In this document: one piece after another, positions 4,897-28,614 of the stretch | How positions within the stretch are numbered: position 1 is the first letter of the stretch | Layout of the letters: every line of letters begins with the position of its first letter | Source: a candidate division WOR-3 bacterium | GTDB lineage: Bacteria; Hydrothermota; UBA3072; B12-G15 | Length of the DNA stretch: 28,635 nucleotides | Assembly: GCA_965649055.1 (NCBI GenBank) | Contig: CBFGJG010000025.1 | Span: 1-28,635, forward strand | Reading direction: 5' to 3' | Notes under the pieces: model-generated | What the model saw: only the letters and a program-made list of their open reading frames with translations | The model's database searches: none | What the model was told of the DNA's origin: nothing | Translations under genes and position numbers: made by a program

Positions 4897-7452
4897 ATGT
4901 ATACAGCACAAAATTTGAGAAATTTGTTTATAAATTTTTTCAAGGAAAAAGACCATATAGTTTACCCTTCTTCTTCTTTGATACCTGAAAGAGACCCTAC
5001 ACTTCTTTTTACTTCAGCTGGAATGGTCCAGTTTAAACCATTCTGGTCAGGTGAAAAAGAGCCGGAATCAGGAAGGGCTACAAGCATCCAGAAATGTTTA
5101 AGGCTTAGTGATATAGATAGTGTTGGAGAGACACCCAAACATGATACATTTTTTGAAATGCTCGGGAATTTTTCTTTCGGTGATTATTTTAAAAAGGAAG
5201 CAATACAATTTGCTTACGAATTTCTTTTTGAAATCCTTAAAATAGATATAGAAAAAGTTGTAATAACAGTGCATCCTGACGATGAAGAAAGTTATAAAAT
5301 ATGGAAGGATATGGGTATTAAAGAAGAAAAGATTTTTAAGTTAAAAGATAACTTCTGGGGTCCAGCAGGAGGAAGCGGCCCTTGTGGTCCCTGCACTGAG
5401 ATACACTATGACCTTGGAGAAGAACTTGGTAATTGTAGTGTAACGGATGAAAACTGTGATAGATTTATCGAACTATGGAACCTTGTTTTTCCACAGTTCA
5501 ATTTCCAGAATAATGAATATCTTCCATTGAAAAATAAAGGTGTTGATACAGGTATGGGGCTTGAAAGACTTGCAATGGTAATGCAGCGAAAGACCAATAT
5601 ATTCCAGACAGACCTTTTTATGCCAATAATAAAAAAGATTCAGGAAATAACCGGAAAGAGTTATGAGGAAAATAAAAAAGAATTTAACATTATAGCAGAC
5701 CACACAAGGGCTTTAACATTTGCAATTTCTGATGGTGCATATCCTTCCAATGAAGGAAGAGGATATGTATTAAGAAGGATTTTAAGGAGAGCGGTAATAA
5801 ATCTTCATAAAATTGGTATTGATGAACCTACATTATATAAGTTAGTCCCAGAAATAGTCAAAATGATGAAAGAACAATATCCAGAGCTTGAAACAAATAT
5901 CAATAAAGTATCGCTAATTATAAAATCAGAAGAAGAAAGATTCCTACAAACACTTGAAAGAGGTTTGAACCTTATAGATGAGTTCACAAATGAATCAAGA
6001 GACAATACAATCTCCGGTGATAAACTTTTCGTTTTATATGACACCTATGGATTTCCACCTGACCTTGTTAAGTTAATCACCAAGGATAAAGAAATCAAGA
6101 TAGATTTTGATGGTTTTGAAAAAGAAATGGAAAAGCAAAGGGAAAAATCAAGAAAATTCTCAACATTTAAGACTCAAGAAAAAGGTGAATGGATAAACTT
6201 AAAAGATGAATCTTCAGAATTTACAGGTTATGAAACTTTTGAAGAAGAAACAGAAATAATTTCTTATAGATACATAAATGACAAAATACAGGTTATATTA
6301 AGAAAAACTCCATTTTATGCTGAAAGTGGCGGACAGATTGGTGATACCGGGATAATCGAAGGAGAAGGTTTTAAAATAATAATTGAAGATACCCAAAAAG
6401 ATGAAAAAGGGAATATACACATAGGTAGATTAGAGGGTGAATTAAAATCATCAGAAGTATATGCTTATGTTGATAAGAAGAGAAGAAGAAATATAATGAA
6501 AAATCATACTTCTACACATATACTTCATAAGGCGTTAAAAATCGTCCTTGGAGAACATATAAAACAGGAGGGTTCCCTTGTTTCATACGACAGGTTGAGA
6601 TTCGATTTCTCTCATCCATCACCACTTAAATCAGATGAGATAAAAAAGATTGAAGATACTGCAAATGAAATAATTCTTGATTGTAGAGAAGTTAAAACAA
6701 GGATGATGCCATTTGATGATGCCCTAAAAGAAGGTGCTGTCGCAATATTCGGTGAAAAATATGGTGATACAGTGAGACTCGTTGAAATTGAAAATTTTTC
6801 TAAAGAATTATGCGGTGGAACCCATGTAAAGAATACATCTGAAATACTTGGTTTCAAGATTATTACTGAAAAAGGTATTGCTGCAGGAATCAGAAGAATA
6901 GAAGCTATAACAGGAGAATGGTTTATAAATTCATATTTTGACAAGAATTCAAAAATTTCTCTTATAGCTGAATTGTTAAAAACAAAAGAAGAAAATCTAA
7001 TAAAAAGGATTAATGACCTGATAAAAGAAAATGAAGAAATGAATAAAAAAATAAGGGATTTTGAAAAGTTATTGATTGAAATAGAATATAAAAAATTTAT
7101 TGAAAGACAGAAAAACTTTGAAAACCTGAAATTTACCGTAGATGAAGTAAATCTTTCAAAGGACGGAATGAGAAAACTTGCTTCGAAATTAACTGAGAAA
7201 AATGATAATTTATTCGGTATAATATTCAAAAAAGAAAATGGAAATGTTTTTGCAGTTAGTTTTTCAGGAAAAGAGGCTTCAAAAAAAATAAAGGCAAATG
7301 AAATAATAATGATAATTTCAAGGTTCATATCCGGCGGAGGCGGTGGTAAAGAAAATATTGCAGAGGGTGGCGGTAAGAATCTGGAAGGTATAAAGATTGT
7401 TATGGAGAGATTCGATGGAATTCTGCAGGAATACCTTAAAGGTAAAAAGTGA
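4897..7452 (+). CDS. alaS: Alanine--tRNA ligase
   Basis: DPTLLFTSAGMVQFKP, TFFEMLGNFSFGDYFK, GPCGPCTEI, DTGMGLERL; editing motifs HTSTH and ELCGGTHV; C-Ala GGGGG. Confidence 0.99.
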   Translation: MYTAQNLRNLFINFFKEKDHIVYPSSSLIPERDPTLLFTSAGMVQFKPFWSGEKEPESGRATSIQKCLRLSDIDSVGETPKHDTFFEMLGNFSFGDYFKKEAIQFAYEFLFEILKIDIEKVVITVHPDDEESYKIWKDMGIKEEKIFKLKDNFWGPAGGSGPCGPCTEIHYDLGEELGNCSVTDENCDRFIELWNLVFPQFNFQNNEYLPLKNKGVDTGMGLERLAMVMQRKTNIFQTDLFMPIIKKIQEITGKSYEENKKEFNIIADHTRALTFAISDGAYPSNEGRGYVLRRILRRAVINLHKIGIDEPTLYKLVPEIVKMMKEQYPELETNINKVSLIIKSEEERFLQTLERGLNLIDEFTNESRDNTISGDKLFVLYDTYGFPPDLVKLITKDKEIKIDFDGFEKEMEKQREKSRKFSTFKTQEKGEWINLKDESSEFTGYETFEEETEIISYRYINDKIQVILRKTPFYAESGGQIGDTGIIEGEGFKIIIEDTQKDEKGNIHIGRLEGELKSSEVYAYVDKKRRRNIMKNHTSTHILHKALKIVLGEHIKQEGSLVSYDRLRFDFSHPSPLKSDEIKKIEDTANEIILDCREVKTRMMPFDDALKEGAVAIFGEKYGDTVRLVEIENFSKELCGGTHVKNTSEILGFKIITEKGIAAGIRRIEAITGEWFINSYFDKNSKISLIAELLKTKEENLIKRINDLIKENEEMNKKIRDFEKLLIEIEYKKFIERQKNFENLKFTVDEVNLSKDGMRKLASKLTEKNDNLFGIIFKKENGNVFAVSFSGKEASKKIKANEIIMIISRFISGGGGGKENIAEGGGKNLEGIKIVMERFDGILQEYLKGKK

Positions 7453-7597
7453 TTGTTCAGAATGTCTTCTTTGCACTTCTATCTGTCCAAACGGAACAAT
7501 TTTATTTAAAGATAGCAAAATTACTTTTTCAAAAGATACATATTTCTGTGGTCTATGCTTAAATATATGTCCGGAGGACGCTATTGAAAAAATATGA
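7415..7597 (+). CDS. Small 4Fe-4S dicluster-type ferredoxin
   Basis: CSECLLCTSICP plus a second motif TYFCGLCLNICPEDAI; GGAGA RBS before ATG 7415; overlaps both alaS and the reductase gene. Confidence 0.75.
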   Translation: MEFCRNTLKVKSDCSECLLCTSICPNGTILFKDSKITFSKDTYFCGLCLNICPEDAIEKI

Positions 7598-8741
7598 TAT
7601 TATAGTAGTTGGAGCAGGTCCTGCAGGTGCTTTCTTTTCAAAGCTAATATCCAATTCAGGTTTTAAGGTTCTTGTTATTGAAAAAAAGAGAAAAATTGGA
7701 GAAAATGTCCACTGTGCTGAAGGTGTTTCAAGGAAATCTATAAATGAAATAATAGATATAAAAAAAGAATGGATATCATCACCTGTAGAAGGTTCTGTTA
7801 TGTCAGGTCCTGATAATACCGAGTTTATAACAGATTATCCAAATGTTGGTTGGATTCTTGATAGAGCAAAAATGGAAGAAGATTTAATGCTTGATGCAAT
7901 TAAAAATGGTGTTGATATAATTACAAAGAAGGAAGTTATTGAGATTTCAGATTATAATAAAGGGAGAGAAGTTACAATCAACACAGGTGAAAAATTTCTA
8001 TGTGAACTTGTTGTTGGTGCCGATGGATTATCATCTTTCACAGGGAGAAGAACAGGTATATTAAACCCTATGAGAATGGACGAATTCCATTCAACATATC
8101 AATATTTTGCCTTTGTAGACAAAAAAGATTCATACGCCGAGATGTATTTTTCTTACATAGATGTTCCAGGTGGATATTTCTGGTGTTTCCCGAAAGGTAA
8201 TGGATTCGCAAATGTTGGCCTTGGTATAGACCCTTCAATGACAAAAGGAAAACCAAAAGATTATCTTGACAAAATCATAAAAAAAAGATTCAGGATATTT
8301 AAACCTGTCTATGGTTTTGGTTCGGGAGTTCCCACAACATTTAACAGCAGGCTTGTGAAAGAAGGTGTTGCACTTATCGGGGATGGTGGTAGATTAACCG
8401 ACCCAATCACTGGTGGGGGTATTGCAAACGCATTAAGAAGTGCAAAAATGCTTGCAGAAACAATTATTAATGGCGATTTGTCACTGAAAACTCTTAAAAA
8501 TTATGAGAACAAGTGGAATAGAACATATGGTAAAAACAATAAATGGGGATGGAGTGCCAAATTGGTTTTTAAAAGTCTCAGAGAGGAAGATATAAAGAAG
8601 ATTGCAGAATTCGGGATAAAGAAATTTCACAACAAAACAATTGACGATATAGACCATTATGATATAATAAAAGGTATAATAAAAGAATACCCTGAGTTCA
8701 TAAAATGGGGTATAAAACTATTAAAAGGGAGATTTGATTGA
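7584..8741 (+). CDS. Geranylgeranyl reductase family flavoprotein (digeranylgeranylglycerophospholipid reductase-like)
   Basis: YDIIVVGAGPAG, HCAEGVS, PGGYFWCFPKG (PxxYxWxFP), ANVGLG and LIGDGGRLTDPITGGGIANA; TTG start. Confidence 0.88.
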   Translation: MKKYDIIVVGAGPAGAFFSKLISNSGFKVLVIEKKRKIGENVHCAEGVSRKSINEIIDIKKEWISSPVEGSVMSGPDNTEFITDYPNVGWILDRAKMEEDLMLDAIKNGVDIITKKEVIEISDYNKGREVTINTGEKFLCELVVGADGLSSFTGRRTGILNPMRMDEFHSTYQYFAFVDKKDSYAEMYFSYIDVPGGYFWCFPKGNGFANVGLGIDPSMTKGKPKDYLDKIIKKRFRIFKPVYGFGSGVPTTFNSRLVKEGVALIGDGGRLTDPITGGGIANALRSAKMLAETIINGDLSLKTLKNYENKWNRTYGKNNKWGWSAKLVFKSLREEDIKKIAEFGIKKFHNKTIDDIDHYDIIKGIIKEYPEFIKWGIKLLKGRFD

Positions 8742-9460
8742 AAGTATATGAAAAAATTTTATATAATGTAAAAAACAAAAAAAAATCAATTGCTGTTCTT
8801 TTAGACCCTGATTCTGAAAATGTTAATAATCTTGGAAAGAAGATAAAAAAAATTAACGAGAGTTCTGTCGACTTTTTATTCGTTGGTGGAAGCACTATCT
8901 TCAATGAAGAGTTTGAAAATTTTTTGAAAAATGTAAAGAAATTATCTTCGAAACCAGTTGTTATTTTTCCAGGTTCATCTCTACAGGTTAGTAAGCACTG
9001 TGATGCTATATTATTTTTATCTCTTATAAGCGGGAGAAATCCGCAATTTCTTATTGGAGAACATGTATCATCCGCAATGAAAATAAAAAAACTTGGTATT
9101 GAATGTATTCCAACAGGGTATATATTGATTGAATCAGGAACCTTTACTTCTGTTGAATTTATGAGTAATACAAGACCAATCCCAAGGGATAAACACGATA
9201 TTGTTATATCACATGCATTAGCAGGAGAATTACTTGGTTTTAAACTGATTTATCTTGATGGTGGTAGTGGTGCTCTGTATTCAATTCCCGAAGAATTGAT
9301 TAGAAAAGTTAAAAAGGAAATAACAATACCTTTAATAATTGGTGGAGGAATAAAGAGTGCCAAAGATATTAGAGAAAAACATAATGCAGGTGCAGATATT
9401 GTTGTTATTGGAAATATAATTGAGAAAGACGAAGGATTTATTGATAAACTTGAAGGTTAA
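8738..9460 (+). CDS. Geranylgeranylglyceryl phosphate synthase (PcrB/GGGPS family, group II type)
   Basis: VLLDPD, FVGGS, PVVIFPG, FLSLISGRNPQFLIG, PTGYILIESG, IYLDGGSGA, LIIGGGI and VVIGN motifs; TTG start overlaps the reductase stop. Confidence 0.93.
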   Translation: MKVYEKILYNVKNKKKSIAVLLDPDSENVNNLGKKIKKINESSVDFLFVGGSTIFNEEFENFLKNVKKLSSKPVVIFPGSSLQVSKHCDAILFLSLISGRNPQFLIGEHVSSAMKIKKLGIECIPTGYILIESGTFTSVEFMSNTRPIPRDKHDIVISHALAGELLGFKLIYLDGGSGALYSIPEELIRKVKKEITIPLIIGGGIKSAKDIREKHNAGADIVVIGNIIEKDEGFIDKLEG

Positions 9461-9461
9461 T

Positions 9462-10220
9462 ATGAAAGGGCTGATACTTGCAGGTGGTCTTGGTAAAAGA
9501 CTATATCCTTTAACAAAAATAACAAATAAGCATCTATTACCTGTTTATGACAGACCTATGATTTATTTTCCACTCCTTACACTCGTAAAAGCAGGGATTA
9601 AAGACATAATGATAATAACAGGTGGTAACAATGCCGGAGATTTTATAAAACTTCTTGGTAATGGTCATTCTTTCGGCTTAAAATACCTACATTATGCTTA
9701 TCAGGAAAAGGAACTTGGAATAGCAAATGCAATTGCTCTTGCTGAAGAATTTATTGGAGAAGACCTTTTCACTGTAATTCTTGGTGATAATATATTTGAA
9801 AATGATATTTCAGGATATGTAAAAGAATTTGAAAAAATAGGTGAAGGTGCAATGATATTATTAAAAAAAGTCCCGAATCCAAAAGAATATGGAATTGCAT
9901 TTATATCAGAAAACAGAATTGTAAAAATTATTGAAAAACCTAAGAATCCAAAATCAAATCTTGCTGTTGTTGGTCTTTATATGTACGATAATACAGTATT
10001 CAAACAGATTAAAAAACTTACTCCTTCAAAAAGGGGTGAGTATGAAATCACAGATATAAATAATTATTATCTAAATAATGGAAGGTTACATTTCAAAATA
10101 CTTGATGGCTGGTGGGGAGATGCGGGTGAAAACATCGATAAATTACTTGAAGTGAACAATTATGTTGCAAATAAATTAAAAAAAGAGAAGACTCACTGGT
10201 GGAATACAAAGATATTTTGA
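9462..10220 (+). CDS. Sugar-1-phosphate nucleotidyltransferase (RmlA/SpsI-like glucose-1-phosphate thymidylyltransferase)
   Basis: GLILAGGLGKRLYPLT, KHLLPVYDRPMI, ILGDNIF, EKPK and PSKRGEYEITD; true start ATG 9462, one base after the GGGPS stop. Confidence 0.92.
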   Translation: MKGLILAGGLGKRLYPLTKITNKHLLPVYDRPMIYFPLLTLVKAGIKDIMIITGGNNAGDFIKLLGNGHSFGLKYLHYAYQEKELGIANAIALAEEFIGEDLFTVILGDNIFENDISGYVKEFEKIGEGAMILLKKVPNPKEYGIAFISENRIVKIIEKPKNPKSNLAVVGLYMYDNTVFKQIKKLTPSKRGEYEITDINNYYLNNGRLHFKILDGWWGDAGENIDKLLEVNNYVANKLKKEKTHWWNTKIF

Positions 10221-10771
10221 ATATTATTCAGGAATACAATAAATTACTTGAAGACCTCAAGATAAATTTTAAAATAATTAAAAAAATTTCAAAAATACTA
10301 ATTAATTCAATAAAAAAACAGGGAAAGATATTGACAATTGGGAATGGCGGAAGTGCTGCCTGTGCACAACATTTTTCCTGTGAACTCGTTGTAAAAATGA
10401 ACAAAGAAAGAAAATCTTTACCTTCAATTGCACTCACAACTGACACATCTATCCTTACAGCTGTATCCAATGACAATTCATTTTCGTATGTTTTTTCAAG
10501 GCAAATTGAAGCCATAGGTAAAAAAGATGATGTGCTTTTAATTTTCTCAACGAGTGGTAAATCTGTAAATCTGATCAATGCTGCTATAACAGCAAAGAAG
10601 AAAGGATTAAAAGTAGTTTCAATTTTAGGTAAAGACGGTGGAAATGTAAAAGAACTTTCAGATTTATTCTATATTGTTCCATCAATGAATACACAGAGGA
10701 TCCAGGAAATACACAATATTTTAATTCATATAATTGTTGAATTGATAGAAGATGATTTCATTAAGTCTTAA
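10199..10771 (+). CDS. gmhA: Phosphoheptose (sedoheptulose-7-phosphate) isomerase, SIS domain
   Basis: GNGGSAACAQH, VFSRQIEA, STSGKSVN and RIQEIH motifs. Confidence 0.9.
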   Translation: MEYKDILNIIQEYNKLLEDLKINFKIIKKISKILINSIKKQGKILTIGNGGSAACAQHFSCELVVKMNKERKSLPSIALTTDTSILTAVSNDNSFSYVFSRQIEAIGKKDDVLLIFSTSGKSVNLINAAITAKKKGLKVVSILGKDGGNVKELSDLFYIVPSMNTQRIQEIHNILIHIIVELIEDDFIKS

Positions 10772-11681
10772 ATCTTATGCTAAAGTAAATCTATTCCTTG
10801 ATATTACAGGAAAAAGAAAAGATGGCTATCATAATCTATCAACTATTTTTCAGATGGTTTCTCTTTATGATATTATAAAACTGAAACTAATTGATGAAGA
10901 AGTCATAAGGATAAAAACCAATAATAAAAATATACCTGAGGACGAAAATAACCTCGCATATAAGGCTGCCATGCTTTTCTTTAAAACTACAGGTATAAAA
11001 AAAGGATTAGAAATAGAAATAAAAAAAAATATACCTACAGGTGCCGGTCTCGGTGGTGGAAGTTCAAATGCTTCTGTTACTTTGCTCGGATTAAATAAGA
11101 TGTTCAATTATCCTATTGATTTTAAAAAAATAAAAAAATTATCAGAAAAAATAGGCTCGGATTGTCCCTTTTTCCTTGTTGGTGGAACAATATATGCAAC
11201 CGGAAAAGGTAATATATTAAAAGAATCTTTCAAAACTCCTAAATTTACTATTCTTATATTTTATCCTAATTTTGAGGTAAAAACAGAATTTGCATATAAA
11301 AATTTTTTAATCGATAAAGATTTAAATAACTTGACAAAAAAAAATATTAATGTATCTTGTATAATAAATGCCTTAAGAAATAACAGGGAAACAGAGATTG
11401 GAAAACTTCTTTATAATATTTTTGAAGATGGTTATTTTAAAATATATAAAGATGTTTTTCAATTTTATAGTTTCCTTAAAAATGGAAGGTGTTTAGGCGT
11501 GGGACTTGCTGGAAGTGGTTCAAGTTTGTATGCGATTTACAAGAAGAAGGAAGATTGCATTTCCGATTTTGAGTATCTTAAAAATTTTGGAAATGTATGG
11601 ATGTGTAGGACTATTTCTTCCAGCGAATATTTAAAAACTTTCAAACTATTGGAGGATGAATTATGCAGATTACTGAAGTAA
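10752..11681 (+). CDS. ispE: 4-diphosphocytidyl-2-C-methyl-D-erythritol kinase
   Basis: AKVNLFL...[35 protein letters not shown]. Confidence 0.96.
11331..11358 (+). promoter_or_regulatory. Possible internal promoter inside ispE for spoVG/tRNA-Gln/prs
   Basis: TTGACA 11331-11336, 16 nt, TATCTT 11353-11358. Confidence 0.4.
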
Positions 11682-11959
11682 AAGTTATGTTGAGAAACGA
11701 ACCAAAATTGAAAGGCTTTGCTAATGTAACTTTTGACAATGAGTTTGTGGTGAGAGGTATCAAGATTATTGAGGGACAGAAGGGACTTTTTATTTCAATG
11801 CCTTCAAGAAGAAACAGAAACGGGCAACACAGGGATATAGCTCATCCTATTAATAACGAGACAAGAGAGAAAATACAAAATGCTATAATTGAAGAATACA
11901 AAAAAGTTTCTTCGAGGGTTAATTCCAATATTGAAAATAAGAAAAAGGAAGGTGAATAA
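11663..11959 (+). CDS. spoVG: SpoVG-family nucleic-acid-binding regulator
   Basis: [31 protein letters not shown] and DIAHPIN; GGAGG RBS. Confidence 0.96.
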
Positions 11960-11967
11960 ACAATTAT

Positions 11968-12040
11968 TGGGGTGTCGCCAAGCTGGCAAGGCACGGGATT
12001 TTGGATCCCGCATTCGGAGGTTCGAATCCTCCCACCCCAG
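11968..12040 (+). tRNA. tRNA-Gln(UUG)
   Basis: Acceptor stem TGGGGTG/CACCCCA; anticodon arm CGGGA-TTTTGGA-TCCCG with TTG at 12001-12003; T arm GGAGG-TTCGAAT-CCTCC; CCA not encoded. Confidence 0.97.
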
Positions 12041-12055
12041 AAAAGGTGAGAAGAT

Positions 12056-12994
12056 ATGAATGAATTAAAGGTTTTCAGTGGAAATTCAAATAAGGCACTT
12101 GCAGAGAAGATTTGCGATTATATAGGTATTCAACCGGGCGAGATATTCGTCAGTAGATTTATGGATGGAGAAATCTGTGTAAAAATTCTCGAAAATGTCA
12201 GAGGAAAAGATGTTTTTGTAATCCAGTCCACATATCCACCTGCTGAGAATCTACTTGAACTTCTAATTATGCTTGATGCTTTAAAGAGGGCTTCAGCAAA
12301 AAGAATTACAGTTGTTATGCCATATTATGGATATGCAAGGCAGGATAAAAAAGATGAACCAAGAACACCTATAACTGCAAAGCTTGTAGCTGATCTCATA
12401 AGCACTGCCGGGGCAGATAGAATTCTATCTATAGACTTACACGCTGAACAGATACAGGGATTCTTTAACCTTCCTTTTGACCATCTCTATGCCGCCCCTG
12501 TTATTATAGAACATATACTTTCTCAGAATTTTAATCCCTCTGAACTTGTTATTGTCTCACCAGATCCGGGAAGGGCAAAGAGGGCAAGAGGCATTGCAAA
12601 GAGGATAGGTAATTTACCAATAGCAATAGTTGATAAAAGAAGGCCATCACCCAACCAATCAGAGGTGATGAATATCGTCGGTGAAGTTAAGGATAAAATT
12701 GTTATTTTAATAGACGATATCATCGATACTGGCGGAACTATTACAGGAGCAGCAAAAGCTCTTGTAGAACAGGGTGCCAAGAAAGTGTATTCATATGTAA
12801 CACACCCGTTGCTTTCAGGAGACTGCTTGAAGAAAATTGAAGAATCACCTATTGAAAAAATGATTGTTACAGATACTATACCGCTAAAAAATAAGTCTTC
12901 TGATAAGATTGAAGTCATATCCGTTTCAAGACTTCTCGGTGAAGCAATTATAAGGATACATAAAGAAAAATCTGTGAGTAATTTATTTATTTAG
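12056..12994 (+). CDS. prs: Ribose-phosphate pyrophosphokinase
   Basis: VRGKDVF, PYYGYARQD, DLHAEQIQGFF and IDDIIDTGGT motifs. Confidence 0.99.
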   Translation: MNELKVFSGNSNKALAEKICDYIGIQPGEIFVSRFMDGEICVKILENVRGKDVFVIQSTYPPAENLLELLIMLDALKRASAKRITVVMPYYGYARQDKKDEPRTPITAKLVADLISTAGADRILSIDLHAEQIQGFFNLPFDHLYAAPVIIEHILSQNFNPSELVIVSPDPGRAKRARGIAKRIGNLPIAIVDKRRPSPNQSEVMNIVGEVKDKIVILIDDIIDTGGTITGAAKALVEQGAKKVYSYVTHPLLSGDCLKKIEESPIEKMIVTDTIPLKNKSSDKIEVISVSRLLGEAIIRIHKEKSVSNLFI

Positions 12995-13003
12995 GAGGTA
13001 TCT

Positions 13004-13690
13004 ATGTTGAAGATTGAAGCGTATGAAAGAAAAGAGTTAGGAAAGTCTGGAGTTAAAAAACTTAGAAAAGACGGCTATATTCCAGCAGTAGCGTATGGAC
13101 ATAATGAGAAAACCATCCATTTAAAAATTAAATATCAGGACTTAAAACAACTGATACACGACCTTCCTTCTGAATCTGCGACAGTTGAACTTTCAATCGG
13201 TGATAAGAAATTTACAACAATTATAAAACAACTCACAAGAGATTTCAGAACCCATGACTTTCATCATGTCGATTTCCAGATATTACACAAGGATGAGAAA
13301 GTAAAGGTAAAAGTTCCAATAGAACTTACAGGCGAATGCCAGGGTGTTAAAGAAGGTGGTGTTATTGATTTCGTAGTAAGGGATGTAGAAATAATTTCAT
13401 TACCTGCCAATATACCCGAAAAGATTGTTATTGATATAACGAATCTTAAGATAGGGCACTCTGTCCATGTGGGTCAGATAAATACAGAAGATAAATACAA
13501 AATTCTATTACCACCTGATACTCCTATTGTTTCAATAGTTGTTCCTAAGAAGATAGAAGCTGCTGCACCAACAGAAGCTGTAGTGGCTGAAGAACCAAAA
13601 GAACCTGAACTTATATCTAAGAAGAAAGAAGAAAAAGAAGAAGTTGAAGAAGAAACCAAAGAAGAAAAGAAGGAAGAAAAGAAAAAATAA
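13004..13690 (+). CDS. rplY: 50S ribosomal protein L25 / Ctc (long form)
   Basis: LRKDGYIPAVAYG, HVDF and GVKEGG; acidic/basic tail. Confidence 0.96.
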   Translation: MLKIEAYERKELGKSGVKKLRKDGYIPAVAYGHNEKTIHLKIKYQDLKQLIHDLPSESATVELSIGDKKFTTIIKQLTRDFRTHDFHHVDFQILHKDEKVKVKVPIELTGECQGVKEGGVIDFVVRDVEIISLPANIPEKIVIDITNLKIGHSVHVGQINTEDKYKILLPPDTPIVSIVVPKKIEAAAPTEAVVAEEPKEPELISKKKEEKEEVEEETKEEKKEEKKK

Positions 13691-13691
13691 A

Positions 13692-14258
13692 ATGACAAAA
13701 AAACTTATTGCAGGACTTGGAAATCCGGGGAAAGAGTACAGGAATACAAGACACAATGCAGGATTCATGTTTATAGATAAAATGGCTGAAAGCTTCAAAT
13801 TATATTTTAAACCAGGAAAAGGTGATTATCTTGAGACAAAAAAAGACGATGTTTTCTTTATAAAACCTATGACTTATATGAACAATTCAGGTATGGCAAT
13901 CTTACAATTTTTACAGGAAAATCCTACAATAAGTATTGAAAATATTCTTGTCGCTTATGACGATATGGATCTTCCTTTCGGTTTTATAAGGATTCGTAAA
14001 GATGGTTCAAGTGGTGGGCATAAAGGTATAGAATCCATTATATATCATCTTCAATCAAAAGACTTTTGTAGATTAAGAATAGGAATAGGTAAAGAAGGAG
14101 ATGGGATTGATTGGGTTCTATCAGATTTTACCAGAGAGGAAATGGAAAAATTACCTGAAATACTGGATATGTCAATTGAAGCTGCTATAACCTGGATTGA
14201 AGATGGAATTGACAAGGCAATGAATAGATTCAACAAAAAGGTTAAGGAGGTTTCATGA
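13692..14258 (+). CDS. pth: Peptidyl-tRNA hydrolase
   Basis: GLGNPGKEYRNTRHNAGF, KPMTYMNNSG, GGHKG and RLRIGIG; start revised to ATG 13692. Confidence 0.97.
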   Translation: MTKKLIAGLGNPGKEYRNTRHNAGFMFIDKMAESFKLYFKPGKGDYLETKKDDVFFIKPMTYMNNSGMAILQFLQENPTISIENILVAYDDMDLPFGFIRIRKDGSSGGHKGIESIIYHLQSKDFCRLRIGIGKEGDGIDWVLSDFTREEMEKLPEILDMSIEAAITWIEDGIDKAMNRFNKKVKEVS

Positions 14259-14542
14259 ACAAATATGAAGGTCTTATTATAATAGACCCAAGGCTTGAAG
14301 AAGAAAAGATAAAAAAAAGAATCGATGAATTGAAGAAAATGATCGAAGAAAGAGGAAAGATTGAAAATATCACAGACTCAGAACCATGGGGCAAAAGAAA
14401 ACTTGCCTATCCAATAAACAAATCAGAAGAAGGATACTATGTGCTAATTGAATTTACAGGTGATGGACAACTTGTTGAAGAATTAAAAAAACATCTGATA
14501 ATAGGAACAGACTATATGAGATTTATGTTTTTGCGGAGATAA
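14255..14542 (+). CDS. rpsF: 30S ribosomal protein S6
   Basis: KYE...I.P, WGKRKLAYPI and GYY motifs. Confidence 0.96.
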   Translation: MNKYEGLIIIDPRLEEEKIKKRIDELKKMIEERGKIENITDSEPWGKRKLAYPINKSEEGYYVLIEFTGDGQLVEELKKHLIIGTDYMRFMFLRR

Positions 14543-14543
14543 T

Positions 14544-14984
14544 ATGAATAATATAAAATTACCATACATAAATAACGCATTTTTAATTGGTAGAGCCACA
14601 AAGGACTCAAGACTTCTATTCTCAAAGAATGATGTCCCTTTCTGTATGATAACCGTTGCTAACAATAGAAGATACAAAGATAAAAAGACGGGTGAATGGG
14701 CAGAACAGACTAATTTTATAAATGTAAAAATTACTGGTCCTTTAGCCCAGGATGTCTGTGACAGGATAAAAAAAGGGACACCTTTATATATTGAAGGTTC
14801 AATAGAAACTTATAATAAGGAAATAGGTGGAAAAAATATAACTCATACTGTTATAAGGGCTAAAAGCGTGAAGATACTATCATCTGATACTATAACAGAA
14901 GAGGAAGAATTCTCACCGCCTGAAATTCCAAATGGGAGTGAACTTCCTCCTGTTGGTGAGGAAGATGAAGAATTACCATTTTAA
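14544..14984 (+). CDS. ssb: Single-stranded DNA-binding protein
   Basis: N..FLIGR and KGTPLYIEG OB-fold motifs; acidic EELPF tail; lies between rpsF and rpsR. Confidence 0.95.
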   Translation: MNNIKLPYINNAFLIGRATKDSRLLFSKNDVPFCMITVANNRRYKDKKTGEWAEQTNFINVKITGPLAQDVCDRIKKGTPLYIEGSIETYNKEIGGKNITHTVIRAKSVKILSSDTITEEEEFSPPEIPNGSELPPVGEEDEELPF

Positions 14985-14993
14985 GGAGGTATA

Positions 14994-15209
14994 ATGAAAA
15001 ACAAGGATTGTTATTTTTGTTCAAACAATATTAATTATATTGACTATAAGAATATAGACCTATTAAAAAGGTTTACATCTGAAAGCGGTAAAATACTTGC
15101 AGGGAGAACAACCGGAACCTGTGCAAAACACCAGAGGAAACTGAAAAAGGCTATTAAAAGAGCAAGGATAATGGCATTACTACCTTTTGTCGCTAAGATT
15201 TCAAGGTAG
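14994..15209 (+). CDS. rpsR: 30S ribosomal protein S18 (zinc-binding form)
   Basis: [24 protein letters not shown] and KRAR.MALLP motifs. Confidence 0.98.
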
Positions 15210-15215
15210 GTGATT

Positions 15216-15665
15216 ATGGATGTTATCCTTTTAAAAGATGTGCCAAATCTTGGTAGAAAAGGTGAGAAAAAACATGTGAAAGATGGTTATGCAAGAAATT
15301 ATTTAATACCTAATGGATTAGCACTCCCCTACTCACCTGCAAACCTTAAAAGATTTAAAAGTGAATTTGAACTAAAGAAAGGATACGAAGAAAAAAAGGA
15401 AGAGGAAGCAATTAGATTACAAAAGGAACTTTCAACGGTCACATTAACTCTAAAAAGAAAAATCGGAAAAGATGGTAAACTTTTTGGAGCAATAACATCC
15501 AAGGATATTGCCGATTTACTTAAAGAGAAAAAAATTGAAATTGACAGAAAGGATATCCTCCTGGAAGAGCCTATAAAATCAAAAGGTATTTATGATATAA
15601 ATATAAAGATTTATAAAGACATTCATGCTACATTGAAATTATGGGTTGTGAGTGAAGAAGAATGA
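15216..15665 (+). CDS. rplI: 50S ribosomal protein L9
   Basis: [25 protein letters not shown] and [11 protein letters not shown] 15216 preferred (AGGTGA RBS). Confidence 0.98.
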
Positions 15666-16144
15666 AAGAAGTTTATATCTCTGGATTTGGACAGGATGAA
15701 AAAGGAGGTATTGTTATAATTCTTTCAGAAAAATTACCAGGTAAGAAAGTATTACCTATTTGGATCGGAGAATACGAGGCACAGGCTATTGCAAGGGCAT
15801 TACAGAAAGTATCTCCACCAAGACCTTTAACCCACGAACTATTAATAAGCATTATATCAGGTCTTGAATTTACAATTGACAAGGTTGTTATAACCGATTT
15901 AAAAGAGAATACATATTATGCAGTTATCTGGTTAAAAAAAGAAAATAACATCTATCACATAGATTCAAGACCATCCGATGCAATAGCACTTGCTGTGATG
16001 TCAGGAGCACCAATATATGTTGATGAAAATGTTTTGGAAAAAGGTGGAATAGACATTGAAACATCAGAGAAAAACGCACAGGATATAAAGAAATATCTTC
16101 TATCAATGAAACCCGAAGACTTTGGCAAGATAGACCTCAAATGA
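15662..16144 (+). CDS. Bifunctional nuclease family protein (DUF151)
   Basis: [22 protein letters not shown] and [12 protein letters not shown] motifs. Confidence 0.93.
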
Positions 16145-16584
16145 AATGTGTAATCCAGAGGGTTAAAGAAGCATCCTGTAAAATTGAAGGGAAAGAAATA
16201 TCAAGAATAGATAAAGGACTGCTGATATTTTTGGGCATACAAACCGATGACAGAAAGGAAGAAGCAGAATACTTAGCGAGCAGGATACCAAATTTGAGAC
16301 TTTTTGAAAGAGACGGAAAATTTAACGATTCTTTAATAGATGTTAATGGGGAAGCACTTGTTATATCACAATTTACATTGTTAGGTAGAACAAAAAAGGG
16401 TTTAAGACCTGATTTCATTCTTGCAGAAAAACCTGATAAAGCAGTGGAACTCTATAAGTTTTTTATAGATGAATTATCAAAATATATACCGGTTAAATCA
16501 GGGATTTTCGGGGCAAAAATGGAAATAAGTTTAATAAATGATGGTCCTGTTACAATAATTATAGACACCCGGGAGAATCTATGA
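16141..16584 (+). CDS. dtd: D-aminoacyl-tRNA deacylase
   Basis: VIQRV, SQFTL, FGAKM and NDGPVT motifs. Confidence 0.97.
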   Translation: MKCVIQRVKEASCKIEGKEISRIDKGLLIFLGIQTDDRKEEAEYLASRIPNLRLFERDGKFNDSLIDVNGEALVISQFTLLGRTKKGLRPDFILAEKPDKAVELYKFFIDELSKYIPVKSGIFGAKMEISLINDGPVTIIIDTRENL

Positions 16585-17426
16585 AAAGTATGACAGGTTT
16601 TGGAAAATCTGTCAAAGAATACAACGGTGTGAGCCTTTCATGTGAATTGACTTCTCTGAATAATAAATATCTTGAAACTGCCTTTAATGTCCCTGATGAT
16701 ATAGAATCTTTCAGGATAGATATGATTGAAATCTTGAAGAAATATATAAAAAGAGGATATATTGAGATAAAAATAGAAATAAGACATAACAAGGATATGG
16801 TGTTTAAAATTGATAAAGAAATGTTAAATTCTTTCATTCCTGAACTCCGCAAGATGATTGACGAATTTTCGCTTGATAGAACACTTGATTTAAAAACACT
16901 CTTTTCAATACCGAACATTTTTAAAAGAGAGAAATTTCAGGAAAAAAATATAATACTGGAACTGCTTGAAGAAGCTGTAAAAGAACTTATCAGATTTAGA
17001 GAAAAAGAAGGTGAAAACATAAGGAAAAGCCTTGAAGAAAAAATTAATTTTATGAGTGATGAGATACAGAAAATAATGTTCGAATCAAATGAGGCATTGA
17101 AAGATAAAAAAGAAGAGATATTTAAAAAACTAATGGCATTAAAAGAACTTGGTTTAAACTTTTCAAAAGAAGATATTGAATTTCTTGGTTTCAGAGGTGA
17201 AATAGATGAAGAGATAATAAGACTCAAAAGCCACATAGACCTTTTGAAAGAAACCTTATATGATGTCAATCCTGTTGGAAGAAAGATAGGTTTTATAATA
17301 CAGGAAATTCTAAGGGAAGTGAATACGATTGGTTCAAAGGCAATACTCCCGGGAACTGTCCACAGGGTGATAAAGATAAAAGAGGTTGTTGAAGAAATAA
17401 GAGAACAATCAATGAATATAGAATGA
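16581..17426 (+). CDS. yicC: YicC/YloC family endoribonuclease
   Basis: MKSMTGFG, EEIIRLKSH, GRKIGF..QE..REVNTIGSK and IREQ..NIE motifs. Confidence 0.93.
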   Translation: MKSMTGFGKSVKEYNGVSLSCELTSLNNKYLETAFNVPDDIESFRIDMIEILKKYIKRGYIEIKIEIRHNKDMVFKIDKEMLNSFIPELRKMIDEFSLDRTLDLKTLFSIPNIFKREKFQEKNIILELLEEAVKELIRFREKEGENIRKSLEEKINFMSDEIQKIMFESNEALKDKKEEIFKKLMALKELGLNFSKEDIEFLGFRGEIDEEIIRLKSHIDLLKETLYDVNPVGRKIGFIIQEILREVNTIGSKAILPGTVHRVIKIKEVVEEIREQSMNIE

Positions 17427-18016
17427 TTATAGTAATTTCAGGACCATCAGGTTCAGGAAAATCTACAATTGTGTCACTCCTAAAAAAAGAAGATTTTTAT
17501 TATTCAATTTCTTTTACAACAAGAAAAAAGAGAGAATCCGAAATAAATGGAAAAGATTATTTTTTTGTGAGTGAAAAAGAATTTAAAGAAATGATAAAAA
17601 AAGGAAAATTCCTTGAATATGCGAAGGTCTATGGAAACTATTATGGAACACTGAAAGAGAATGTGGTAAAAGCATTAAAAGAAAAAAAGGATGTTATTCT
17701 TGACCTTGATACAAAAGGTTCATTGAATGTAAAGAGAATATTTAAAGATGATGCAATTCTCATTTTTATTATTACTGATTCAATTGATACATTAAAAGAA
17801 AGGCTTATAAAAAGGAAGACAGAAAGCAAAGAAGAATTTGAAAGAAGGATAAACGCAGTTAAGAAAGAAATTAAAGATGGGAAAAAATTTGATTATATAA
17901 TACTGAATAAATCTGTTGATGGTGCATTGAAAGAAATAAAAGATATAATAAATTCAGAAAGAAAAAAAGTAAAAAGAAATCTAAATATACTTGAAAATTT
18001 TTTGAAAAATCTATAA
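17423..18016 (+). CDS. gmk: Guanylate kinase
   Basis: SGPSGSGKST, SISFTTRKKRESE.NGKDY and GNYYGT motifs. Confidence 0.98.
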   Translation: MIIVISGPSGSGKSTIVSLLKKEDFYYSISFTTRKKRESEINGKDYFFVSEKEFKEMIKKGKFLEYAKVYGNYYGTLKENVVKALKEKKDVILDLDTKGSLNVKRIFKDDAILIFIITDSIDTLKERLIKRKTESKEEFERRINAVKKEIKDGKKFDYIILNKSVDGALKEIKDIINSERKKVKRNLNILENFLKNL

Positions 18017-18022
18017 AAAAAC

Positions 18023-18050
18023 TTGACATAAAAAAAATATCTTTTATAAA
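18023..18050 (+). promoter_or_regulatory. Possible promoter of the HD-GYP gene (possibly leaderless)
   Basis: TTGACA 18023-18028, 16 nt, TATAAA 18045-18050, ATG at 18059; no SD. Confidence 0.45.
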
Positions 18051-18058
18051 TATGATAA

Positions 18059-19888
18059 ATGGAATTTTATATAAACCATCTTAAAAAAACTCTAAATAAA
18101 ATTATAAAAATAAAAAATTTTATTTTTATTACAAAGGATTTCTCAACTACCAAGAGTAAAAAATTTATTCAGATGTTCAATGAAGCAAAAAATGGTATAA
18201 ACTATACAGATAAGTGGATTATCTATAAAAAAACAAATTCAGGAATACTGATCGAGATTAAAGAAAAGAAGGATAAAAAGAAACTAAAAAATCTTGTATA
18301 TGGTATAAAGCACATATACGAAGATATATATAACTATTATTTGCACCAAAAAATAAATAAAATTATCTTATCCTTACAGGATATAAAAAATTTCTCCGAT
18401 ATCTATAATTTACTTGTGAAAGAAATCTGCGAATCACTCGAGTTTGAAAAAGGTGTTTTCTGCAGATACAATCCTGATGAAAATATGATTTATGGTGTTC
18501 CACCAGGATATGGTGTTCAAAATGAAAATGATATTCTGTCGTTCAGATTCAAACTTGATGAACCATCTGCCGGTAAACATGCAATATCAACCAAGAGTAT
18601 TTATTTTACAAATGACGCAGAGAATGATCCATATATTATCAAGAAATTTGTAAAATATTTTAACGCATATAAAGTAATAATTGTCCCATTTTTCTATGCA
18701 AATAAACTTGTAGGTCTTTTCTATGGAACAAGGAATAAAAGCGGGAAAGACTTAGATGAAGAAATTTCAATTTTAAAGATCCTCTCTTCAAGTATTTCCT
18801 TGCTTTTAAATTACCTTATTGAATCAGAGAAAAGGACAAAAAGAGAAGAAAGTATTCTCGAATTACAAAATGCTAACCTTGCAATTTCATCTGAGATAGA
18901 CATTGACAAGGTCCTATCGCTTATCTCTGAAGAGATTGTAAAACTACTTGATGCCGATGCAACATCCCTTATGATATTTGATAATGAAAAAAATGGCTTT
19001 GTTATAAAAAGTTCCTATGGTTTATCTGAAGAATATGTAAGAAAACAATTTATCCCTTATCAAAATGTGGAAAAATTTATTAAAAATAATTATCCTACAA
19101 TGATCACTGAAGATTTGAGGAAACAATATTACGGAGATAAAGAAATAATAGAAAAGGAGGGGCTTATATCCTGCCTTTCAACAGCGGTAATATCAGAGAA
19201 CAAGCTGATGGGTATTCTGAATGTATATCAGAGAAGACTGAGAAAATTCACAGAAGATGATATACTTATCATAAAGGTCTTTGCAGCACAGGCCGGGGTT
19301 GCTATAAGGAATGCAAGACTTTATGAAAAAATCCTACAGACAACCGAAAGTTTTATAATCACACTTTCAGAAATGGAAGCATTAAAAGACCTTTATACAT
19401 TATCACATTCTGAAAATGTTGCAACACTTGCTTTAAAGATAGGTATGGCAATGGGACTACCACAAAAGATGCTCGATGATATCTACAGGGCTGGCTTATT
19501 GCACGATGTTGGGAAAATAATCGTTGAAAGAAACCTATTGATAAAGCCTGAAAGACTAACAGATGAAGAGATGGAAGAAGTTAAAAAACATGTTGAATTT
19601 GGTAAAGATATAATAGAAAGAATAAGTGAGTTTGAAACAATTACAGAATACATATACTATCACCATGAAAGATATGACGGAAAAGGATACCCCAAAGGTC
19701 TTAAAAACGATAATATTCCACTCGGCGCAAGAATCCTTGCAGTTGCAGATGCAATAGAAGCAATGTTATCAGAAAGACCTTATAGAAGCAGAATGACAAT
19801 AGAAGATGTAAAAAACGAGCTTATAAAAGAAAAAGGCTCTCAATTTGATCCACATATCGTTGATATCGCATTAAAAATCCTTGAATAA
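18059..19888 (+). CDS. GAF-GAF-HD-GYP cyclic di-nucleotide phosphodiesterase
   Basis: Two GAF-like domains; HSENV, LHDVGK, HHERYDGKGYP and RILAVAD motifs. Confidence 0.93.
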   Translation: MEFYINHLKKTLNKIIKIKNFIFITKDFSTTKSKKFIQMFNEAKNGINYTDKWIIYKKTNSGILIEIKEKKDKKKLKNLVYGIKHIYEDIYNYYLHQKINKIILSLQDIKNFSDIYNLLVKEICESLEFEKGVFCRYNPDENMIYGVPPGYGVQNENDILSFRFKLDEPSAGKHAISTKSIYFTNDAENDPYIIKKFVKYFNAYKVIIVPFFYANKLVGLFYGTRNKSGKDLDEEISILKILSSSISLLLNYLIESEKRTKREESILELQNANLAISSEIDIDKVLSLISEEIVKLLDADATSLMIFDNEKNGFVIKSSYGLSEEYVRKQFIPYQNVEKFIKNNYPTMITEDLRKQYYGDKEIIEKEGLISCLSTAVISENKLMGILNVYQRRLRKFTEDDILIIKVFAAQAGVAIRNARLYEKILQTTESFIITLSEMEALKDLYTLSHSENVATLALKIGMAMGLPQKMLDDIYRAGLLHDVGKIIVERNLLIKPERLTDEEMEEVKKHVEFGKDIIERISEFETITEYIYYHHERYDGKGYPKGLKNDNIPLGARILAVADAIEAMLSERPYRSRMTIEDVKNELIKEKGSQFDPHIVDIALKILE

Positions 19889-21106: not shown

Positions 21107-21115
21107 CCTTCCCCC

Positions 21116-21553
21116 TTAAACATTCCATCTTTTCCCAATCTCATTAGGCCCTAATTTTTTAATTGTTTCTGTTATCTCTGTCATAGTCTTTGCGAATTTC
21201 ACACCTTCACTTGCAGATATCCATTTCAGGAATATCCGTTCTTCACCAAGACCCAGTGTCTTAAATATCGTCTTTATTATTTTTATCCTTCTTCTTGTCT
21301 TATAGTTTCCATTTATATAATGGCAATCACCGGGATGGCATCCGCCTACTACGACCGCGTCAGCGCCTTCAAGCAACCCTCTTATAATATATGCAGGGTC
21401 AACGGTTCCTGAACACCAGACCCTTAGGGGTCTTATGTTTGTTGGATATTTCATCCTTGAAGTCCCTGCAAGGTCAGCTGCTGCCGAAGTGCACCAGTTA
21501 CAGAAAAATCCAAGTATTTTTGGTTCAAAACCCTTGTTTTCAGATTCGTTCAT
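21116..21553 (-). CDS. mvhD: MvhD/FlpD [2Fe-2S] adaptor subunit
   Basis: FEPKILGFFCNWC, AADLAG, CSG.VDP, GCHPGDCHY and WISASEG motifs. Confidence 0.95.
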   Translation of the reverse strand: MNESENKGFEPKILGFFCNWCTSAAADLAGTSRMKYPTNIRPLRVWCSGTVDPAYIIRGLLEGADAVVVGGCHPGDCHYINGNYKTRRRIKIIKTIFKTLGLGEERIFLKWISASEGVKFAKTMTEITETIKKLGPNEIGKRWNV

Positions 21554-21561
21554 ATTCCCTC

Positions 21562-23244: not shown

Positions 23245-23252
23245 TCTTCCTC

Positions 23253-23933: not shown

Positions 23934-23946
23934 ATCACCTCCAATT

Positions 23947-28579: not shown

Positions 28580-28586
28580 TTTCAAG

Positions 28587-28614
28587 ATTTTATGCAAGAC
28601 AATATTTTTGTCAA
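28587..28614 (-). promoter_or_regulatory. Sigma70 promoter of the hdr operon, probably leaderless
   Basis: Minus strand TTGACA (28614-28609), 16 nt, TAAAAT (28592-28587), 7 nt, ATG 28579. Confidence 0.7.

Follow-up and report, generated by a model that had tools for sequence, protein, structure and literature searches.

The stretch of DNA analysed here (the window) comprises 28,635 nucleotides of the forward strand of contig CBFGJG010000025.1 in the assembly GCA_965649055.1 of a candidate division WOR-3 bacterium. It carries three consecutive genes that encode a small ferredoxin, a flavoprotein of the geranylgeranyl reductase (GGR) family, and a group II geranylgeranylglyceryl phosphate synthase (GGGPS), a combination that recalls the biosynthesis of archaeal ether lipids. 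The genome is 2.08 Mb in size, is distributed over 85 contigs, and has a G+C content of 31.6%. The three genes lie directly behind alaS, which is the first gene of a long co-directional and mostly overlapping run on the plus strand (4897-19888), the relevant part of which is as follows (scores are profile matches):

4897..7452, plus strand, alaS, alanyl-tRNA synthetase (tRNA-synt_2c 611 bits; tRNA_SAD; DHHA1)
7415..7597, plus strand, small ferredoxin of 60 amino acids (aa), ATG start (Fer4 36.6 bits; Fer4_9 32.1 bits)
7584..8741, plus strand, GGR family flavoprotein, 385 aa, TTG start (TIGR02032 188.7 bits; GGR_cat 62.8 bits)
8738..9460, plus strand, group II GGGPS, 240 aa, TTG start (PcrB 144.3 bits; TIGR01769; NF003198)
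9462..10220, plus strand, RmlA-like sugar-1-phosphate nucleotidyltransferase (NTP_transferase 184.5 bits; rmlA models 239-251 bits, below their cut-offs)
10199..10771, plus strand, gmhA, GmhA-like sedoheptulose-7-phosphate isomerase (SIS_2 89 bits; TIGR00441 191.4 bits against a cut-off of 209.45)
10752..11681, plus strand, ispE, CDP-ME kinase of the methylerythritol phosphate (MEP) isoprenoid pathway (TIGR00154 207.1 against 138.7 bits)
11663..11959, plus strand, spoVG (SpoVG 117 bits), which forms the conserved downstream end of the cluster with prs
12056..12994, plus strand, prs (Pribosyltran_N 172.6 bits), in the same order in relatives

The ferredoxin gene overlaps the 3' end of alaS by 38 nt, the GGR gene overlaps the ferredoxin gene by 14 nt, and the GGGPS gene overlaps the GGR gene by 4 nt. 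The initial annotation of this DNA had described three overlapping genes of these kinds, and the open reading frames (ORFs) and family matches agree with that description. It had also placed them between alaS and ispE/prs, which is correct, but did not mention the RmlA-like gene and gmhA between the GGGPS gene and ispE; similarly, its statement that all junctions overlap holds from alaS through to GGGPS, but not for the junction between GGGPS and the RmlA-like gene if the latter starts, as is probable, at the ATG at 9462. A Shine-Dalgarno-like purine run precedes each start by 5-7 nt (GGAG at 7404-7407 for the ferredoxin, GGAGGA at 7573-7578 for GGR, and GGGAG at 8727-8731 for GGGPS). Since the GGAGGA run of the GGR gene lies within conserved C-terminal codons of the ferredoxin, this arrangement fits translational coupling, and the three genes fit a translationally coupled cassette inside a housekeeping gene run. 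Distal to prs, the run continues with L25, pth, rpsF, ssb, rpsR, rplI, and further housekeeping genes, and we infer that the run from alaS into these genes constitutes an operon. The G+C content of the region is even (0.28-0.34). The numbers of promoter-like sites (50, against 42.8 +/- 5.7 in shuffled sequences) and terminator-like sites (1, against 4.0 +/- 2.1) between 4200 and 13200 were uninformative on transcription units.

Regarding the GGGPS, its scores exceeded the cut-offs of PcrB (PF01884, 23.9 bits), of the TIGR01769 GGGP equivalog (180.3 against 161.55 bits), and of NF003198, a subfamily that unites GGGPS and heptaprenylglyceryl phosphate synthase (HepGPS) (282.2 against 247 bits). 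The protein matched the group II structures 4jej, 4mm1, 6jo3, and 6nke with 143-213 bits (best, 4jej with 212.7 and 4mm1 with 170.2 bits) and the group I structures 2f6u, 3vzx, and 1viz with 40-44 bits, scores that confirm the group II assignment previously given to it. According to the group labels in PMC9385802, 4jej is the enzyme from Flavobacterium johnsoniae (IIb) and 4mm1 that from Methanothermobacter (IIa). The catalytic Tyr and Tyr-x-Glu of GGGPS are described as strictly conserved in the relevant part of the same paper, and both catalytic tyrosines are retained in the window protein (GY in PTGYILIE and Y in IYLD). Judging from its sequence, this protein is predicted to form the first ether bond between glycerol-1-phosphate (G1P) and geranylgeranyl diphosphate (GGPP).

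The GGR passed the cut-offs of TIGR02032 (GG-red-SF, 158.8 bits) and PF22578 (GGR_cat, 27 bits), and aligned over its full length (residues 1-374) with PDB entry 3oz2 (160.9 bits), which is its closest solved full-length relative. The motifs HCAEGVS, PGGYFWCFPKG, and DPITGGGIANA, on which the initial annotation relied, are all present in the translation. In a 15-sequence alignment (A1), Cys44, P195-G-G-Y-x-W-x-F-P-K, L264-x-G266-D267, and the GGG segment were invariant or nearly so, and a catalytic Cys, a cavity motif PxxYxWxFP, and a flavin adenine dinucleotide (FAD) motif LxGD are among the GGR motifs named in the consulted part of PMC10821996. The motif RxxxD reads RxxxE in the window protein. 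These features suggest a reductase of the digeranylgeranylglycerophospholipid (DGGGPL) reductase type, with a predicted role in the saturation of the chains. A second GGR-like gene is present in the genome (contig C11, minus strand, 317 aa, TIGR02032 140 bits, below the cut-off); its neighbours are a LipS2-like and a LipS1-like lipoyl synthase gene, and it was rejected as a lipid candidate. A GGR-like gene flanked by LipS1/LipS2-like genes was also recognized, by eye from ORF order and sequence, in G002, a genome of a related genus.

In the ferredoxin, the first motif (CxxCxxCxxxCP) is complete and the second is without its first Cys, the position of which is taken by Thr42. Among 49 aligned ferredoxins encoded adjacent to GGR, seven Cys were invariant, and the eighth column, which corresponds to Thr42, was Cys in at least 90%. 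An extra N-terminal Cys (Cys4) is conserved in the family to which the window belongs (f1), and we infer that it could replace the missing cluster ligand. The reading frame is open, overlaps both neighbours, and keeps its cysteine pattern in all three other f1 genomes (G001-G003), which indicates that the ORF is more than a product of chance. In these three genomes, and also in G090 and G043, which represent a distant family of the same phylum (f9), a same-strand ferredoxin gene directly precedes GGR. GGR presumably receives its electrons from the ferredoxin.

The closest named homologues of the GGR (75% identical) and of the GGGPS (73% identical) are both labelled candidate division WOR-3, and the identity of the GGGPS declines smoothly from 92% to approximately 50% through homologues labelled WOR-3 and Bacteroidales. 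The order alaS-ferredoxin-GGR-GGGPS was found in 3/3 other f1 genomes, one of which is split at a contig end, and the two f9 genomes show alaS-ferredoxin-GGR-GGGPS-ispE-spoVG-prs, i.e., the order of the window minus rmlA and gmhA. In relatives, alaS directly precedes either GGGPS or GGR-GGGPS. Twenty of 21 close relatives have a GGGPS above the cut-off, and 19 have a gene similar to digeranylgeranylglyceryl phosphate synthase (DGGGPS). In the sister family (f2), alaS is followed by GGGPS and then by a gene for an LPG_synthase_TM protein, and a GGR of the window type was found in 0/19 genomes (E <= 1e-40). An overlapping membrane-protein ORF of approximately 350 aa follows GGGPS at the f2 loci L027, L029, L030, and L031; the protein of G004 (L027) matched LPG_synthase_TM with 113 bits, and the others were assigned by ORF order and sequence. 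The GGR paralogues of f2 are of three types, none of which is accompanied by a ferredoxin, and they fall outside the ferredoxin-linked clade.

A broader view was obtained from a sample of 121 genomes of the phylum; these genomes are related, and counts are hence given without statistics. GGGPS was present in 77 and a DGGGPS-like gene in 78, with both occurring together in 72 genomes. A gene similar to glycerol-1-phosphate dehydrogenase (G1PDH) was found in 44 genomes (40 with GGGPS), as was a window-type GGR (43 with GGGPS), and all four genes were present in 26/121. By a comparison of coordinates by hand, 25 of the 43 genomes that possess both genes have GGR as the immediate, co-directional upstream neighbour of GGGPS; these 25 represent eight families, and one of their GGR genes has an internal stop. 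A lack of conservation of the linkage in relatives was among the outcomes by which the initial annotation would have been refuted, and the linkage was conserved in f1, in f9, and in these 25 genomes. A narrower view, that GGR-GGGPS linkage is confined to f1 (3/4 f1 genomes, the fourth being split at a contig end, and 0/17 in f2), was overturned by the phylum sample. Since the cassette lies within a conserved alaS...ispE-spoVG-prs run across distant families and a DGGGPS-like gene accompanies GGGPS in 72/77 genomes, these patterns of sequence conservation argue for long vertical inheritance and probable routine expression rather than a recent accessory gain.

Outside the phylum, 80 GGR loci were kept of at least 450 confirmed among at least 600 matched stretches; they derive from other bacterial phyla and archaea, and include no close relative of the window. 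A small ORF with the pattern CxxCxxCxxxC was present on the same strand within 400 bp of GGR in at least 63 of the 80 loci, nearly always just upstream and overlapping; this is a lower bound because the strict pattern would miss variants such as the window ferredoxin and some loci were cut on the 5' side of GGR. Therefore, the ferredoxin-GGR unit is widespread in both domains. A weak PcrB-like match within 4 kb of GGR was found at one of the 80 loci, and the joining of this unit with GGGPS appears to be particular to WOR-3. A quick maximum-likelihood search over 116 GGR rows gave a tree with an arbitrary root and unstarred deep supports of 91-93, in which the clade of the window (SH-aLRT 99) was placed outside a mixed bacterial and archaeal crown and beside other Fibrobacteres-Chlorobi-Bacteroidetes (FCB)-type lineages. 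A recent transfer from archaea was not supported by this quick tree, in which the window clade is not nested among archaea.

Candidates for other genes of the ether-lipid pathway are located elsewhere in the genome. Four UbiA-family genes were found, and the one on contig C10 best matches DGGGPS-type models (NF009523 173.8 bits and NF009521 168.1 bits). An ORF that adjoins it is undecaprenyl-diphosphatase-like, as read by eye only. Two further UbiA-family genes (C16 and C1) matched no specific NCBIfam model (best 46-57 bits), and the fourth (C2) resembles decaprenyl-phosphate phosphoribosyltransferase (230.8 bits; cut-off, 234). A G1PDH-like gene is present on C20 (NF002022 234.9 bits; the runner-up family, glycerol dehydrogenase, 65 bits); in a search of the PDB, this candidate matched 3ce9 with 171 bits, G1PDH chains with 150 and 120 bits, and glycerol dehydrogenases with no more than 56 bits. 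The initial annotation had proposed a mono-ether or hybrid ether/acyl product because it saw neither DGGGPS nor G1PDH; with candidates for both on other contigs, and with both co-occurring with GGGPS across the phylum, the ground for this proposal falls at the genome level. Of the genes that it recommended searching for (DGGGPS, EgsA/AraM, CarS, and GGPP synthase), candidates were thus obtained for the first two, but not for the others: profile searches of the genome found CdsA and no CarS, and the GGPP-type synthase is considered below.

The genome also encodes FabF, PlsY, PlsC, and GpsA for bacterial acyl lipids, and a mixed membrane is predicted from the presence of these genes and CdsA. 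GGGPS and DGGGPS homologues alongside the fatty-acid and glycerol-3-phosphate (G3P) pathway in one genome constitute the mixed-membrane gene set of the FCB type (Villanueva et al.), and this set is present here, with a DGGGPS-like gene that scores below its equivalog cut-offs. PlsY, of the G3P acyltransferase family, has three paralogues in this 2-Mb genome (172.9, 124.4, and 123.9 bits on contigs C1, C43, and C4, respectively). No MenA was found in the genome (the best match, 23 bits, was to the DGGGPS-like gene), and the MqnA/D family of the futalosine pathway and a long-chain prenyl synthase were not found there, either. A role for the GGR as a menaquinone reductase was rejected due to the lack of MenA and of the MqnA/D family.

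The gene identities, conserved motifs, conserved gene order, and co-occurrence of pathway genes described above may be read as a single pathway. The G1PDH-like enzyme would provide the G1P backbone, and GGGPS would condense it with a prenyl diphosphate, nominally GGPP derived from MEP-pathway units, to form the first ether bond. The DGGGPS-like UbiA enzyme would attach the second chain, and the bacterial CdsA may activate the product in place of the missing CarS. The FAD enzyme GGR would then saturate the chains with electrons from the iron-sulfur ferredoxin encoded upstream, as suggested by the gene order and the precedent in Methanosarcina. Ordinary acyl-G3P lipids would be made alongside the resulting saturated diethers of the archaeol type. 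The enzymatic activities, the electron transfer between ferredoxin and GGR, and the chain length, stereochemistry, and abundance of the lipids are predictions of this pathway. We assign a probability of roughly 60% to the reading that ferredoxin-driven saturation and ether-bond formation give archaeol-type lipids in a mixed membrane.

A number of points weigh against this reading. The DGGGPS-like gene is below its equivalog cut-off (174 against 269 bits), as is the G1PDH-like gene for NF002022 (235 against 413 bits), and the genome is 93.8% complete. GGGPS (contig C25) and the DGGGPS-like gene (C10) are not co-located, unlike those of Cloacimonetes; co-location characterizes the Cloacimonetes loci and is not something that the pathway requires. 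A G1PDH-like gene was not found in G001, an f1 genome that is approximately 98% complete, or in any of 14 GGGPS-keeping genomes of the genus g4. The GGR missed the DGGGPL reductase equivalogs (NF041160, 179.5 against 780 bits, and NF041080, 139.8 against 580 bits), and is therefore filed as a family member of the ferredoxin-linked clade and not as a proven DGGGPL reductase. The acid of the Tyr/Tyr/Glu triad of GGGPS is Asp (YLD) in the window protein, and likewise in f1, f3, f7, and two f2 genomes; of 18 aligned phylum sequences, 8 have Asp and 10 have Glu in this column between fixed neighbouring motifs, which looks like a tolerated conservative change and not decay. The ferredoxin of the window is without one of the eight canonical cysteines, and among 19 phylum genomes inspected, a ferredoxin was located upstream of window-type GGR in six, which all belong to f1 or f9, and was not seen in the remaining 13. 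At one of these 13 loci (L136, genome G033), the GGR gene is beside a divergent EtfB-like ORF, recognized by eye, which is followed by a 345-aa ORF; the EtfB-like ORF may represent a different electron donor for GGR.

The supply of the prenyl chain also counts against the formation of C20 lipids. The sole trans-prenyl synthase of the genome passes the model for farnesyl diphosphate (FPP) synthase (301.8 against 275 bits), misses CrtE (272.5 against 460 bits), and has a Tyr five residues before its DDLPxxD motif. Its gene is on contig C9 (L007:1420-2289) and adjoins an ORF that was read by eye as dxs-like. The aromatic-plus-insertion signature was found in 9/9 orthologues of the order (Tyr), in 8/12 GGGPS-positive genomes of other families (Tyr), and in 4/4 GGGPS-negative genomes (Phe); the remaining 4/12 GGGPS-positive genomes have an archaeal type-I-like prenyl synthase instead. 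By the rule on this signature in PMC9385802, as given in the part of the paper used here, FPP is the predicted product. Most phylum genomes have a single trans-prenyl synthase of one of two kinds, a bacterial FPP synthase-like form (DDLPxxD, aromatic at -5) or a form of approximately 350 aa (families f10, f13, f19, and f28) with the signature of archaeal type-I GGPP synthase (DDxxD, aromatic at -5). No GGPP-type synthase was evident in the genome or in the order to which the window belongs, which weakens the "phytanyl" (C20) part of the initial annotation; its more general proposal of saturated isoprenoid glycerol ethers is consistent with the gene set, co-occurrence, and linkage. On the other side, the residue that corresponds to the proposed chain-length limiter Ile90 of the F. 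johnsoniae GGGPS is Val84 in the window protein, which is the residue type of the C20-using Methanothermobacter enzyme and mildly favours C20. It is possible that the prenyl synthase also makes GGPP, that the ethers are C15-based, or that the donor is scavenged. Saturated sesquiterpenoid diethers have, to our knowledge, not been described as a class of membrane lipids. The stronger proposal that the lineage builds its ether lipids from farnesyl (C15) chains on G1P, or has turned an FPP synthase-type enzyme into its supplier of GGPP for a heterochiral mixed membrane that is vertically inherited in WOR-3, is a speculative one that we rate as quite unlikely.

Alternatively, the enzymes may be active and yield a minor specialised lipid, such as a prenylglycerol or prenylglycerol-phosphate anchor for an envelope glycoconjugate. 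By analogy, the heptaprenylglyceryl phosphate of Bacillus PcrB is not a membrane phospholipid, and the setting of the genes could suit such a role: the RmlA-like sugar nucleotidyltransferase and GmhA come next in the run, G024 has the same pair and an extra ORF of approximately 299 aa, GGGPS of f2 is followed by the LPG_synthase_TM-family membrane protein, and the undecaprenyl-diphosphatase-like ORF (by eye) adjoins the DGGGPS-like gene. A full bacterial acyl-lipid pathway is present, and the role of such FCB genes is left open in the relevant part of Coleman et al. (PMC6431249). However, the occurrence of a DGGGPS-like gene in 72/77 GGGPS-positive genomes points to diethers, rmlA and gmhA are not in the f9 version of the cluster, and a reductase dedicated to saturation and accompanied by its own ferredoxin is suited to a structural lipid. 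We regard the minor-lipid explanation as unlikely, albeit one that merits serious consideration.

It is also conceivable that GGR and the ferredoxin reduce another polyprenyl compound, such as a polyprenol carrier, a quinone, or free GGPP or FPP, and are adjacent to GGGPS without a shared pathway. GGRs are promiscuous, and many paralogues have no assigned substrate, as stated in part of PMC10821996; the lipid-reductase equivalog model was missed, GGR is apart from GGGPS in 18 of the 43 phylum genomes with both, and the f2 locus keeps GGGPS without a window-type GGR. On the other hand, 43 of the 44 genomes with window-type GGR also possess GGGPS, with the two genes adjacent and co-directional in 25, the closest full-length solved relative is the Thermoplasma lipid reductase, and no MenA, futalosine-pathway family, or long-chain prenyl synthase was found in the genome, so that this explanation appears very unlikely. 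A still smaller chance is given to the salvage or degradation of environmental archaeal lipids or prenols instead of de novo synthesis. This would explain the missing GGPP synthase, the type of which was not found in the order of the window, and a passage in Coleman et al. (PMC6431249) raises the reverse reaction where G1PDH is lacking; however, a G1PDH-like gene is present, the cassette is linked to the biosynthetic MEP gene ispE, and breakdown requires no saturating reductase. An artefact, in which archaeal DNA from contamination or a chimeric assembly was joined to a bacterial contig, may practically be dismissed. The initial annotation had argued against it from the overlapping junctions of ferredoxin, GGR, and GGGPS, and the recurrence of the cassette in related genomes, in 3/3 other f1 genomes (one interrupted by a contig end) as well as in further families, substantiates this argument, together with the even G+C content, the smooth fall in GGGPS identity from 92% to approximately 50%, and a GGR clade that is not nested among archaea. 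We retain archaeol-type lipids in a mixed membrane as the preferred reading.

Several other features of the window are mentioned for completeness. The RmlA-like gene occupies the same position in the relatives G002 and G024, as judged by synteny. The contig begins inside a CRISPR-array-like stretch with two exact 29-nt repeats (1-29 and 77-105), beside which a Cas_APE2256 (Csx1-like) gene, cas2, and cas1 are encoded on the minus strand (480-2536). A redox cluster on the minus strand (20027-28597) encodes a 1120-aa HdrA-like flavoprotein with Fer4 domains, an MvhD/FlpD-like protein, a CCG-domain (HdrB-like) protein, a 560-aa FAD_binding_2 protein, and several 4Fe-4S proteins. We speculate that this heterodisulfide-reductase-like cluster may form an electron-bifurcating complex and serve as a source of reduced ferredoxin.

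Archaeal membranes are built from isoprenoid ethers of G1P and bacterial membranes from acyl esters of G3P, and this lipid divide is central to ideas on early cell evolution. Bacteria with the capacity for both kinds of lipid represent natural tests of the divide. The gene set described here is more complete than that of the Cloacimonetes metagenome-assembled genomes (MAGs) for which the concept was initially demonstrated, with a candidate G1PDH as well as a saturating reductase and its presumed electron donor in one cassette with GGGPS. This makes for a fuller case than the published one, and one that is tractable by heterologous expression, while holding no conceptual surprise for a specialist. 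The ferredoxin-GGR-GGGPS unit is a ready module with which to probe ferredoxin dependence or, in bacterial hosts, to produce saturated archaeal lipids, and the lack of a GGPP synthase poses a concrete and testable puzzle.

The occurrence of GGGPS, DGGGPS, and GGR in FCB-group bacteria is already known and, as far as the consulted parts of two papers extend, has been published with enzyme assays (PMC7852524; PMC6431249). Villanueva et al. (ISME J, 2020; PMC7852524) report that GGGPS and DGGGPS of Cloacimonetes yielded unsaturated archaetidylglycerol in Escherichia coli, that the GGRs of Cloacimonetes are related to euryarchaeal ones, that CarS and G1PDH were missing, and that further FCB and related phyla have homologues. 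Coleman et al. (GBE, 2019; PMC6431249) surveyed 12 FCB phyla and found GGGPS and DGGGPS in every one of them, with G1PDH confined to Fibrobacteres and Cloacimonetes; their table includes WOR-3. A full-text literature search on WOR-3 with GGGPS or ether lipids found only this paper. The details that are apparently new are the conserved ferredoxin-GGR-GGGPS cassette in a housekeeping run, the frequency of G1PDH-like genes in WOR-3, and the lack of a GGPP synthase.

In comparison with known systems, the window genome shares with Cloacimonetes and other FCB bacteria, as they are characterized in the parts of PMC7852524 and PMC6431249 drawn on here, a group II GGGPS, a DGGGPS-type UbiA, GGR homologues, the MEP and full bacterial fatty-acid/G3P pathways, and CdsA without CarS. 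It differs from Cloacimonetes in its phylum, the nearest named homologues carrying the label candidate division WOR-3, and in having a G1PDH-like gene, whereas egsA/araM are described as absent from four Black Sea MAGs in PMC7852524. Furthermore, the partners linked to GGGPS here are GGR and a ferredoxin rather than DGGGPS, with the cassette inside a housekeeping run, and there is one FPP-type prenyl synthase in contrast to the two polyprenyl synthases reported there. The F. johnsoniae GGGPS (4jej) aligns over residues 3-238, with retention of both tyrosines and of the GGG and GSG loops that bind phosphate; the differences are the change from catalytic Glu to Asp in the window protein and an unlike gene neighbourhood. 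PcrB and AraM of Bacillus subtilis, which are associated with heptaprenylglyceryl phosphate in the cited part of PMC6431249, provide a similar pairing of a bacterial G1PDH homologue with a PcrB-family prenyltransferase; however, PcrB is a group I enzyme, and the window GGGPS scored 40 bits against PcrB/HepGPS structures and 213 bits against group II. The DGGGPL reductase of Thermoplasma acidophilum (3oz2) and the window GGR have in common the xCxEGxS segment, PxGYxWxFPKG, LxGD, and DPITGGGIANA, and differ in the RxxFD segment, which reads RAKME in the latter.

The GGR of Methanosarcina acetivorans depends on a ferredoxin encoded at its locus (PMC10821996, citing Isobe et al., 2014). The parallel with this pair drawn in the initial annotation is well founded: here, too, a small ferredoxin gene lies beside a GGR of the same clade, as the archaeal pair is portrayed in the passages of PMC7852524 and PMC10821996 that cite it. 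A Methanosarcina homologue (P0099) is 36% identical to the window GGR, and Methanosarcinales loci with an upstream ferredoxin fall in the same large tree clade. Unlike M. acetivorans, the host of the present pair is a bacterium, its ferredoxin carries an extra N-terminal Cys and has one cluster Cys replaced by Thr, and the gene for GGGPS directly follows.

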